Shown in pieces: positions 733 to 11,231 of a DNA stretch of 56,859 bases; position 1 is the stretch's first letter, and every line of letters begins with the position of its first letter. Source of the DNA: an uncultured Gammaproteobacteria bacterium (GTDB taxonomy: Bacteria > Patescibacteriota > Patescibacteriia > UBA1544). Location of the stretch: positions 1 through 56,859 of the forward strand of contig CAZZDA010000001.1 in NCBI GenBank assembly GCA_964652585.1, read 5' to 3'. The notes beneath the pieces were generated by a model that made no database searches, was not told the DNA's origin, and was given only the letters and a program-made list of their open reading frames with translations. The position numbers were made by a program, and so were the translations under genes.

Positions 733-1467
733 TCAACGGTTTTTGAATGACCCCTGCGCTAATACTACGCCCCACACCTTCTGCGCTCCGGCATCTTTAC
801 ACACGGCTGCCGCATGCTCCAGTGTAGTACCGGTGGTCACCACGTCATCAATTAGCAACACGGTCTTTCCTGAAAGTATTTCTTTTTCATCTATACGGAA
901 TGGATTGCGCATTTTCTTTCTTTTCTCATGTGTTTTGTGAGCTTGCGATCTGTGCAACCCTCTCCTCTGCAATACGCGAGAGAGACAAACATCTTGAAAG
1001 GCAATATGTACCGATTCGGCAAGCTGCTCCGCCTGATTAAATCCCCGAAAACGCATACGGAAAGGGCTGAGCGGAATAGGAAGCATTACACACTGCTGAT
1101 GACCGCCAACTCTTACCCAAAAAGAAGCGTCCAGTGCGATAATAAGGTATGAGCCCAATGACGCACCTACCTCATATTGAAAATGGTACTTCCACTGACG
1201 AATGGCACTACGCACTTCTTTTTGATGATAGGCAAGAGCTGAAACGACACCATCAAGCGCATGGGTATTTTTGCATATTGTACACGTCACCCCTCCTACA
1301 GAATGTATTCCGCAAAAAACGCAGTGCTGTTGGCGCTGCACGCGAAAACGAGACGTACATGATGCACAAAGCACCACACCTCCAACACCACAACTAGCAC
1401 AGAGCTGGGGAAAGAGAACATCTTTGCAAAACTGTACGCAACGCGCCAAATCCACCTCTCTCCTCAT
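733..1467 (-). CDS. comFC: ComF family protein (ComFC-type phosphoribosyltransferase-fold competence protein)
   Basis: N-terminal CxxC..CxxC zinc-finger-like cysteines (CASCG..CASC..CVFCG..CTIC). C-terminal PRTase motif VLLIDDVVTTGTTL. ATG at 1467 overlaps the upstream stop as ATGA. Confidence 0.8.
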   Translation of the reverse strand: MRREVDLARCVQFCKDVLFPQLCASCGVGGVVLCASCTSRFRVQRQQHCVFCGIHSVGGVTCTICKNTHALDGVVSALAYHQKEVRSAIRQWKYHFQYEVGASLGSYLIIALDASFWVRVGGHQQCVMLPIPLSPFRMRFRGFNQAEQLAESVHIAFQDVCLSRVLQRRGLHRSQAHKTHEKRKKMRNPFRIDEKEILSGKTVLLIDDVVTTGTTLEHAAAVCKDAGAQKVWGVVLAQGSFKNR

Positions 1468-2072
1468 AAAGAGATCCACTCCGCACGATCAACACGCCAC
1501 GTCTTTTCATATTGCATTAAGGCAAGTTCAATATCCTGGTAATACACACGCGGTACTGCACTAATGCCCTTGGTTTCCTGGCGCTGAGTACGTATACGTA
1601 CCGTAGCTCTCCCCCGTTCTTCGTCTAAATTTTCCATGGTAAACTGCAATGCTTTTGTTACCACCCCATAATAATCGTCTGCTACAACATCACGCGAACG
1701 CTGCGCGCGCAATTGTGTGGAAAAGCTGTTGGTGATCAAAGGCTCCACATCGGTTAAATTTTCAAAATTACTCTCTGTCGAAAAACTACCATAGCGTTCC
1801 GTAAAGAGAAATGCTGTTTGCTGTAAACCTGCTTGTAATGGCGGCAATACGGGTACGTTCGTATCTTCCGGTAGAGGGTGTGTCTTATTGCCACCTTCCG
1901 GTAAACTACTACCCTGATCCACATTCGCAGTTGGCTGCGTTGTTGCAGCATCATTTATAGGTGTTGTCGGTGATGATTGCCGCAAGAGAAGCCACAACAC
2001 CAGCGCGACAATAATAAGGATGCCAAGCACCGCTCCAAGAATAATAATAAGACGTTTGGTAAAAATTGTCAT
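1464..2072 (-). CDS. membrane-anchored hypothetical protein; possible VirB8-like (single N-terminal TM plus compact C-terminal domain)
   Basis: ORF with ATG at 2072. It has the TM helix LIIILGAVLGILIIVALVLWLLL followed by a Pro/Thr linker and a globular domain of about 130 aa. Its position between virB4 and comFC prompts the VirB8 guess, which is inference only. Confidence 0.55.
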   Translation of the reverse strand: MTIFTKRLIIILGAVLGILIIVALVLWLLLRQSSPTTPINDAATTQPTANVDQGSSLPEGGNKTHPLPEDTNVPVLPPLQAGLQQTAFLFTERYGSFSTESNFENLTDVEPLITNSFSTQLRAQRSRDVVADDYYGVVTKALQFTMENLDEERGRATVRIRTQRQETKGISAVPRVYYQDIELALMQYEKTWRVDRAEWISL

Positions 2073-2106
2073 AGAAAGAGATTTCAAAAAATAAAAAATG
2101 ACATAC

Positions 2107-10685: not shown

Positions 10686-10712
10686 AGCGCTAAATGTATA
10701 AAAACAATATAT

Positions 10713-11231
10713 TTACTCTGGACACTCCAGAATACTAACAACTTCTACCAAAAAATCATGTACTACATCGCCACTACATACATAGGTAGCAGTTAGTGTT
10801 AAAAGAAGTTGTACAACAATACCTATAATGAAAGAAAGGAGTGATAGTATAAGTATGATTTTCAATACTTTTTTCCACAAAACCTTTTTTACCACTGTTT
10901 TTGTAGACTGTTTTATTTTTTGTTTTACAACTTGTTGAGCTTTTTTTTTCACCTGTTCTTGCAATCTTTGACTTACCCTATCCTGTTGCATCACTGCCTC
11001 TGCCTGCCTTTGTTGTTGCTCTGTTTCCAGTGCTTGCTGCTGTGCTACCGCCTCTTGCTCCGCCTGTACTTGCTGTTCTTGTTTTGCAATTTCCTGCTGA
11101 TGCCGTATTTTTTGAATAGACGGTCCTTCATTTCCTTCCAAACTTCCTGCGAGTTTTGCTCGCTGTCGTGCAAAAGCAAAATCCTTTGCATACACTCCCT
11201 CTTGTTCTTGTTGTTCGGTTTCTTGCGACAT
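10713..11231 (-). CDS. hypothetical Gln-rich coiled-coil protein with C-terminal TM anchor
   Basis: ATG-started ORF with a QQ/EQ-rich central region and the hydrophobic stretch ILILSLLSFIIGIVVQLLLTL. Confidence 0.6.
   Translation of the reverse strand: MSQETEQQEQEGVYAKDFAFARQRAKLAGSLEGNEGPSIQKIRHQQEIAKQEQQVQAEQEAVAQQQALETEQQQRQAEAVMQQDRVSQRLQEQVKKKAQQVVKQKIKQSTKTVVKKVLWKKVLKIILILSLLSFIIGIVVQLLLTLTATYVCSGDVVHDFLVEVVSILECPE

Follow-up and report, generated by a model that had tools for sequence, protein, structure and literature searches.

A survey of type IV secretion system (T4SS) genes across Patescibacteria (Quinonero-Coronel et al. 2025, PMC12102498) described a monophyletic Patescibacteria VirB4 clade related to the MPF-FATA class, with TrsD, PrgI/VirB3, VirB6 and VirB2-like pilins widespread and VirB8-like proteins found almost only in the class ABY1. 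The system is chromosomal and relaxase-less, relaxases being nearly absent from the phylum (109 in 103 genomes), and genes for VirD4-like or type IV coupling proteins (T4CPs) occur in 2,918 Patescibacteria genomes, mostly distant from virB4. ABY1 T4SS loci commonly hold comF, recG and radA, with comF enriched near virB4, and the authors proposed that the T4SS imports host DNA or other macromolecules. In Southlakia epibionticum, a homologous cluster (SEML1_0006-0019) from which T4CP and relaxase are missing was found by transposon sequencing to be essential for epibiotic growth (Wang et al. 2023, PMC10633639). Here we analyse such a locus, a T4SS gene cluster with comF, at positions 733-11231 of contig CAZZDA010000001.1 (the window, 56,859 nt), together with two insertions of a small GIY-YIG mobile element that lie within it.

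The T4SS–comF locus is an ordinary member of the ABY1-type T4SS of Patescibacteria and as such has already been described. It shares with that clade VirB4, TrsD, PrgI/VirB3 and VirB8-like proteins, a putative VirB6-like protein, a possible VirB2-like pilin, a chromosomal setting, the lack of a relaxase, the lack of an adjacent T4CP and, as in ABY1, a co-located comF. Nothing essential differs; the window adds two start-codon insertions and a lineage-specific protein of 172 aa.

Composition of the locus and comparison with described systems

An earlier prediction made on this DNA, here called the original prediction, described a same-strand operon ending in comFC and packed with tiny gaps or overlaps. 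Strand and positions of all the listed genes were confirmed. Not every gap is small: PrgI-trsD (353 nt) and trsD-virB4 (152 nt) are both widened by mobile elements that have inserted there. The components of the cluster, with the two insertions, are as follows.

733..1467 (open reading frame (ORF) to 1479), minus strand: ComF/ComFC-family protein, by Pfam and TIGR00201
1464..2072 (ORF 1464-2087, 207 aa), minus strand: VirB8-like bitopic protein, by predicted fold
2107..4116 (ORF to 4137), minus strand: VirB4-family ATPase, by the NCBIfam CD1110-family model
4118..4249, minus strand: 132-bp ORF-less derivative (miniature inverted-repeat transposable element, MITE), terminal inverted repeats (TIRs) as in the 306-bp element, TATG at 4250-4253 and 4114-4117
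4290..4970 (ORF to 4991, 233 aa), minus strand: TrsD / TraC-like protein, homolog of the VirB4 N-terminal region, by NCBIfam
4972..5277, minus strand: 306-bp mobile element, 18-bp TIRs CCCTGTAGTAGAATTTTC / GAAAATTTCACTACAAGG, TATG at 5278-5281 and 4968-4971
5345..5809, minus strand: PrgI/VirB3-like protein, PF12666 (E 6.7e-7), two transmembrane (TM) segments
5935..7737, minus strand: 600-aa soluble protein, fold not recognised, placed by its position beside prgI
7845..10685, minus strand: VirB6-like polytopic membrane protein, 946 aa, by hydropathy and weak TrbL matches in relatives
10713..11231, minus strand: Q/E-rich protein, 172 aa, with a C-terminal TM segment by hydropathy

Relatives were collected in a GTDB scan with one genome per species, which returned at least 598 of them; 80 loci were kept and joined by 4 from exact-protein look-ups, giving 84 loci, whose ORFs were all searched by tblastn and iterative hidden Markov models to establish synteny. 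VirB4, 669 aa long when read from the ATG at 4116, passes the 325-bit cutoff of the CD1110-family model NF045971 with 368.6 bits (E 6.5e-110), in an alignment limited to profile positions 172-730, and matches P-loop_TraG of Pfam (1e-28). The TrsD ORF, which yields 226 aa from the ATG at 4970, matches NCBIfam TrsD (1e-7) and the N-terminal profile positions of VirB4, and its relatives match PF26593 (TraC-like). What the original prediction listed as VirB4 in two ORFs is in fact the native TrsD and VirB4 pair: trsD is a separate gene adjoining virB4 in 83 of the 84 loci, with 1-30 nt between the TrsD stop and the VirB4 start in relatives. This is the ancestral arrangement and reflects no disruption. 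A VirB4 gene broken by the 132-bp insert was rejected on the same count of relatives.

The VirB8-like protein owes its identification to fold comparison, profile searches having failed: neither Pfam, NCBIfam nor profile comparison with PDB sequences gave a sequence-level match. A homolog search with the protein alone returned 5 proteins and a profile query was needed; the 50-sequence alignment from the profile search was used for AlphaFold2. The resulting model (mean pLDDT, the predicted local distance difference test, of 87) begins with a TM helix, which a disordered linker joins to an alpha+beta NTF2-like domain. Its top Foldseek match in the PDB is the VirB8 domain of PrgL of pCF10 (7aed, E 6.8e-6), and CagV, TrwG/VirB8 of R388, TraE, TraH and TcpC are among the other top matches. 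The modelled fold confirms the suggestion, made in the original prediction, that this TM protein could be VirB8-like, and the family is present in 82 of the 84 loci.

ComF contains a phosphoribosyltransferase domain (Pribosyltran PF00156, E 6.5e-9) and an N-terminal double zinc ribbon (DZR_2, E 3.6e-4) with four conserved CxxC pairs, and TIGR00201 aligns to it end to end (E 8.2e-23, profile positions 1-189 of 190). Residues D211, D212, V213 and T215 are invariant in the conserved VDDVxTTGxTL loop of the family consensus, the phosphoribosyl pyrophosphate-binding loop. Judged by its sequence, the window protein is a divergent member of the ComF/ComFC family. Its start codon overlaps the stop of the VirB8-like gene as ATGA, just as first reported.

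Upstream of trsD, PrgI exceeds the gathering score of PF12666 (30.2 bits against 27), has two TM segments by hydropathy and was found in 80 of the 84 loci. The 600-aa protein has conserved N- and C-terminal domains around a variable charged middle, and the C-terminal one is encoded immediately upstream of prgI in 78 of the 84 loci. It has no match in Pfam, NCBIfam or the PDB, a Pfam scan of all family members was also empty, and the family profile retrieved only TM or low-complexity noise from PDB sequences; it is a lineage-specific T4SS-associated protein. Hydropathy places about 7-8 TM segments within the first 340 aa of the 946-aa protein, followed by a hydrophilic tail of about 600 aa. The protein itself has no Pfam match, and its family profile likewise gave only TM or low-complexity noise against PDB sequences; TrbL/VirB6 (PF04610) is weakly matched in 4 of 24 family members and TrbL_3 weakly in the L001 homolog. 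The family lies upstream of virB4 in 51 of the 84 loci, many contigs being too short upstream to show the gene. The 172-aa Q/E-rich protein matches no Pfam family significantly, has homologs in the two closest loci only (L001 and L002, 46% identity) and is lineage-specific and probably accessory.

Pfam scans of the window, covering all non-nested ORFs of at least 120 aa and the 82-89-aa GIY-YIG ORFs, found no domains of a T4CP, relaxase, VirB11 or peptidoglycan hydrolase, no integrase and no VirB7/VirB9/VirB10 outer-membrane core. The statement in the original prediction that no VirD4-type ATPase, relaxase, VirB11 or hydrolase is recognisable in the 57 kb is thereby upheld. A system devoid of a coupling protein does not follow, VirD4-like genes mostly lying far from virB4 in Patescibacteria (PMC12102498). 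Likewise, the monoderm T4SS core without relaxase or T4CP in the window was borne out, but the idea had already been published (PMC12102498).

Conjugative T4SSs of the MPF-FATA class resemble the locus in several respects: VirB4 passes the CD1110 (CTn2) model, PrgI is encoded, the N-domain protein TrsD has a gene of its own, as it does in pGO1, and the VirB8-like protein finds its closest structural match in PrgL (pCF10). In contrast to them, the window has no relaxase, T4CP or peptidoglycan hydrolase, and its cluster is housekeeping-like, vertically inherited and chromosomal rather than carried on a mobile element. The Helicobacter pylori ComB system for DNA uptake, which operates with ComEC and ComFC, likewise uses a T4SS without relaxase or T4CP, with ComFC acting downstream in the entry of single-stranded DNA (PMC13395361). 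ComB, however, is a diderm system (VirB2-4 and VirB6-10, with an outer-membrane core) unlinked to comFC, whereas the window lacks VirB7, VirB9 and VirB10 and has comF inside the operon. The crenarchaeal Ced system (CedA/CedB) also employs a VirB4/HerA-like ATPase, for import, and CedB is weakly matched (E 2.7e-11, about 70 residues). The similarity is limited to the ATPase core and no CedA homolog is present; the locus is not a member of Ced.

Conservation, function and the link to comF

Conservation of the translocon is extensive. VirB4 has more than 8000 homolog clusters, with proteins of about 630-660 aa; identity ranges over 72-100% and length over 614-678 aa in the best 120, and the named top homologs belong to Parcubacteria, Buchananbacteria, Falkowbacteria or Patescibacteria; it is 66-90% identical to proteins of at least 598 Patescibacteria species. 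Nearly all of the 84 loci show the gene order PrgI-TrsD-VirB4-VirB8-like. Downstream sequence of 2.2 kb or more is available for 59 loci, and in 36 of these the next gene after the VirB8-like gene is a same-strand comF, mostly overlapping it or separated by less than 35 nt; this adjacency is kept although the ComF proteins of relatives are only about 25-35% identical. The proposed virB4-comFC adjacency thus recurs, by way of the VirB8-like gene, in species-level relatives. As a separate observation, gaps of 200-530 nt occur among prgI, trsD, virB4 and the VirB8-like gene in L027, L041, L047, L008, L067 and L079, most loci having less than 40 nt; other small insertions may repeatedly land at these junctions.

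Two further window genes had been suggested to belong to the same function.

31148..32239, minus strand: possible VirB2-like T4SS pilin, PF18895 (E 3.7e-4, below the gathering score), 20 kb from the cluster
16372..26370, minus strand: giant surface protein, 3332 aa, with a CBM_4_9 domain (Pfam)

Homologs of both stand beside the cluster in relatives, which favours the suggestion. Those of the pilin-like gene lie within 10 kb of virB4 in 12 relatives, where about half fill the comF-less slot after the VirB8-like gene, and in 16 relatives the VirB6-like gene is immediately preceded by partial homologs of the giant CBM protein. The pilin-like gene is linked to the T4SS weakly, and the giant surface protein is possibly associated with it.

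These components make up the core of a monoderm, conjugation-derived inner-membrane translocon: a putative VirB6-like channel protein, PrgI/VirB3, TrsD with the VirB4 ATPase, and the VirB8-like protein. At contact with a host cell, the VirB4/TrsD ATPase would power the VirB6/VirB3/VirB8 membrane channel, and the pilin-like and giant surface proteins may assist. The T4SS would move macromolecules, import of host nucleic acid being the likeliest direction. On the cytoplasmic side, ComF, whose gene is translationally coupled to the VirB8-like gene here and to the core in most ABY1 relatives, would take over the incoming single-stranded nucleic acid; in other bacteria, ComFC is known to work with ComEC in the transport of single-stranded DNA (PMC13395361). 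DNA import or host contact is a published hypothesis, which we regard as reasonable and which the genomic evidence partly supports. Taken jointly, a monoderm translocon core, macromolecule movement at host contact, take-over by ComF and two start-codon insertions lying outside the machine form an account that we consider quite probable.

Several points weigh against an import machine coupled to ComF. The ComF score of 81.3 bits falls below the curated NCBIfam comF cutoff of 233.55, and the VirB6 assignment is based on weak profile matches. At the position after the VirB8-like gene, comF is absent from 23 of the 59 assessable loci (39%), so that coupling between T4SS and comF is frequent, not obligatory, and in other Patescibacteria classes comF occurs without T4SS linkage (see also PMC12102498). 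In the Buchananbacteria loci L003 and L004, comF is followed by recG and radA, and the adjacency could therefore mark a DNA-repair or competence neighbourhood rather than physical coupling. In Southlakia, comEC was dispensable for growth and the T4SS essential, and the authors, noting the absence of T4CP and relaxase, leaned towards protein export or another role (PMC10633639). From these data an alternative can be drawn in which comF is a mere neighbour, packed beside the cluster and beside recG and radA in a gene-dense tiny genome, ComF serving ordinary competence through ComEC and the type IV pilus and the T4SS acting as an exporter of proteins or effectors into the host. The replacement of comF by pilin-like genes in several loci agrees with it. 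Retention of the adjacency, often with overlapping stop and start, at such low ComF identity exceeds what drift keeps, however, and comF is enriched near virB4 in ABY1 (PMC12102498). We take this alternative seriously while judging it to fall short of probable.

A decayed or cryptic integrative conjugative element (ICE), with relaxase and coupling protein outside the window, would account for the nearest affinity of VirB4 to conjugative CD1110/MPF-FATA ATPases. It would also fit the tRNA-Ser genes, typical integration sites, just downstream of comF in the window, and the nearest relative, where a large serine recombinase lies beside tRNA-Ser directly after comF. That recombinase, however, belongs to a separate insertion of about 4.5 kb that the window does not have, and no integrase, relaxase or T4CP was found in the 57 kb. 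The identity of VirB4 across species, the gene order conserved within housekeeping DNA and the rarity of relaxases in Patescibacteria (PMC12102498) speak further against it, and an ICE origin is very unlikely. The original prediction that the system is not conjugative is upheld by a chromosomal, deeply conserved cluster with no ICE. The separate insertion is a small element at tRNA-Ser(GCT), immediately downstream of comF at 13729-18100 of L001 and also in L002, encoding the large serine recombinase, a LexA-like repressor and short ORFs.

GIY-YIG elements at start codons

One 18-24-nt sequence occurs four times in positions 3900-5950 of the window, marking the ends of the two insertions listed above. 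The sole ORF of the 306-bp element (4988-5251, ORF to 5257) encodes an 87-aa GIY-YIG protein (Pfam E 3.9e-16), and the downstream TATG of the element supplies the trsD start codon (ATG 4970). The 132-bp MITE lies exactly between trsD and virB4, and its downstream TATG supplies the virB4 start codon (ATG 4116). In the closest relative (L001/L002, VirB4 about 90% identical) both inserts are missing and each site has a single TATG, the empty sites in L001 reading TTTCTATGCAATC at trsD and TAATATGTTTAAACC at virB4. An independent assembly of the same organism (L195) has the same filled sites. No copy of the TIR was found in the 84 T4SS loci; the element is therefore no operon feature. The GIY-YIG gene, counted as an operon component in the original prediction, is instead the ORF of a mobile element with TIRs and a target-site duplication (TSD). 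The element lands on the TATG of a start codon and regenerates the ATG, which leaves both host genes intact. RNA folding of the 306-bp and 132-bp elements gave modest z-scores (-1.8 and -1.7); a TIR stem in their RNA is plausible, folding energy alone being no demonstration.

Public metagenome contigs scanned for exact copies of the left TIR yielded 110 loci (L085-L194), in 50 of which a partner TIR lies 47-326 nt downstream. Family members have 18-bp TIRs (CCCCGTAGTAGAATTTCC / GGAAATTTCACTACGGGG) and duplicate 4 bp of target, which is usually the TATG of a start codon; TTGA, TGTA, TGTG, CAAA, AATG, TCAA, CTTG and CCTG are the other duplications. The 41 non-redundant insertions, 39 from metagenomes and the two window copies, fall into three size classes. 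Those of 306-344 bp (n=13) each contain one 87-98-aa GIY-YIG ORF in constant orientation and position, with TATG on both sides, and those of 132-158 bp (n=15) and 65-78 bp (n=13) are ORF-less. At 16 of 21 assessable sites an ORF of at least 100 codons begins at the regenerated start codon, and the N-termini of the host genes at several sites resemble, by eye, SMC, GroES and signal-peptide proteins. Copies with the GIY-YIG ORF also have a leader ORF, mostly of 8 codons (MPRSRISN), that begins at the upstream TATG. In most copies it stops two nt before the GIY-YIG ATG, and in the 309-bp copies of L121 and L125 it continues for a few codons beyond that ATG. The distance from the GIY-YIG stop to the host start codon is 22 nt. 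As far as sequence can tell, this spacing suggests translational coupling on both sides of the GIY-YIG ORF.

About 60 of the 110 left-TIR matches have no standard partner TIR, and some of these are probably chance 18-mers. Of 13 partnerless matches inspected, at least 11 represent another MITE class, whose right end has diverged and which has an additional hairpin module. Its copies in L108, L113, L124, L133, L142, L164, L166, L176 and L186 share the left TIR and a right end of GGAAATTCACTARCAGGG, and the second hairpin module ends in ...ACAAAAT(T)ATG, abutting an apparent gene start. Elsewhere, another small GIY-YIG gene (L029, 150-560) is framed by different, imperfect inverted repeats of about 30 nt (GTCATCCTGAGCGGAGCGAAGGATCTTCCT ...), and TIR-flanked GIY-YIG genes may be broader than one family.

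The window itself has a further GIY-YIG gene (242-490), situated between comF and a pair of tRNA-Ser genes and 45% identical to the first; no inverted repeats flank it. Just upstream of it, a tRNA-Ser-like stretch at 495-640 (GGAAGGGTGGCTGAGTGGTTG ... GAGGGTTCG ... GAATCC) is broken by GC-rich hairpins. ARAGORN and Rfam called no tRNA there, and the stretch may be a decayed tRNA or an att remnant.

The GIY-YIG element resembles pairs of insertion sequences and MITEs in its TIRs, 4-bp TSD, non-autonomous derivatives, empty sites and copies at unrelated loci, but has no transposase of a known class (DDE, DEDD, HUH, Ser or Tyr). With the free-standing Seg homing endonucleases of phage T4 it shares an intergenic position and the GIY-YIG domain. 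Unlike homing endonuclease genes, however, it has TIRs and TSDs, a fixed orientation and a strong preference for TATG at start codons, and its targets are unrelated genes without a cognate allele, which is not classical homing. The protein is nearest to the small UPF0213/YhbQ-type GIY-YIG proteins (PDB 1zg2, 1ywl), within a family of 8474 clusters at 50% identity (E up to 0.001).

One interpretation, which we advance tentatively and regard as rather doubtful, is an undescribed class of transposable element. Its autonomous form of about 310 bp would have 18-bp TIRs, a 4-bp TSD and the 87-aa GIY-YIG nuclease as its only protein, and would give rise to MITEs of 65-158 bp. Insertion would occur at start-codon TATG in one orientation, the 8-codon leader behind the host ribosome-binding site would drive translation, and the host ATG would be regenerated, so that streamlined genomes could be colonised without killing essential operons. 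It is also conceivable, if hardly the favoured expectation, that the GIY-YIG ORF is a passenger and that the TIR elements are non-autonomous and mobilised by a conventional transposase, for example of the DDE type, encoded elsewhere between matching ends. TIRs combined with a target duplication of constant 4-bp length are the hallmark of DDE-type cut-and-paste, copies without the ORF are more numerous than those with it (28 against 13), and we know of no characterised GIY-YIG transposase. A passenger role is harder to reconcile with the 13 long copies, all of which hold only the GIY-YIG ORF at a constant place between the TIRs, and with the L029 family member, which has inverted repeats of its own. 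Moreover, none of the 60 further exact left-TIR matches has a partner TIR at transposase distance, nor did any reveal a longer element with such ends that encodes a conventional transposase. We found no published description of a bacterial GIY-YIG element with TIRs and TSD in a search that most subscription-journal papers lay beyond, and its novelty is probable.

Window context and implications

Outside the cluster, the window consists of ordinary chromosomal DNA from a bacterium with a small genome and holds housekeeping genes for leucyl-tRNA synthetase (LeuRS), UvrA, ParA/ParB, KsgA, Sua5, SmpB with tmRNA, IF3, L20 and several tRNAs. Between the T4SS genes and the giant surface protein (11495-16012) lie genes for a prenyltransferase/terpene-cyclase-like protein with DUF4430, a second DUF4430 protein, a DUF6580 membrane protein and a PaaX-like protein with a Cas2-like domain. 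All but the PaaX-like gene are syntenic in L001 and L002, and the set could be a vitamin or cofactor uptake module. At 53739-56858, a 1039-aa ORF with zero Pfam matches runs to the window edge.

To the published description of the Patescibacteria T4SS, the present analysis adds a species-level count of comF linkage (36/59), structural confirmation of the VirB8-like subunit from its predicted fold and evidence for giant adhesin and pilin genes travelling with the T4SS cluster. The GIY-YIG element is the more interesting result and a separate lead worth pursuing. If the GIY-YIG protein drives the element, it would be a new kind of transposase, in a compact selfish element that settles on start codons without disrupting expression. 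At a minimum, the element accounts for numerous unusual N-terminal extensions and "split" operons among annotated Patescibacteria genomes. For the organisms themselves, the T4SS is the best candidate for the supply of macromolecules from hosts to ultra-small, biosynthetically poor cells.

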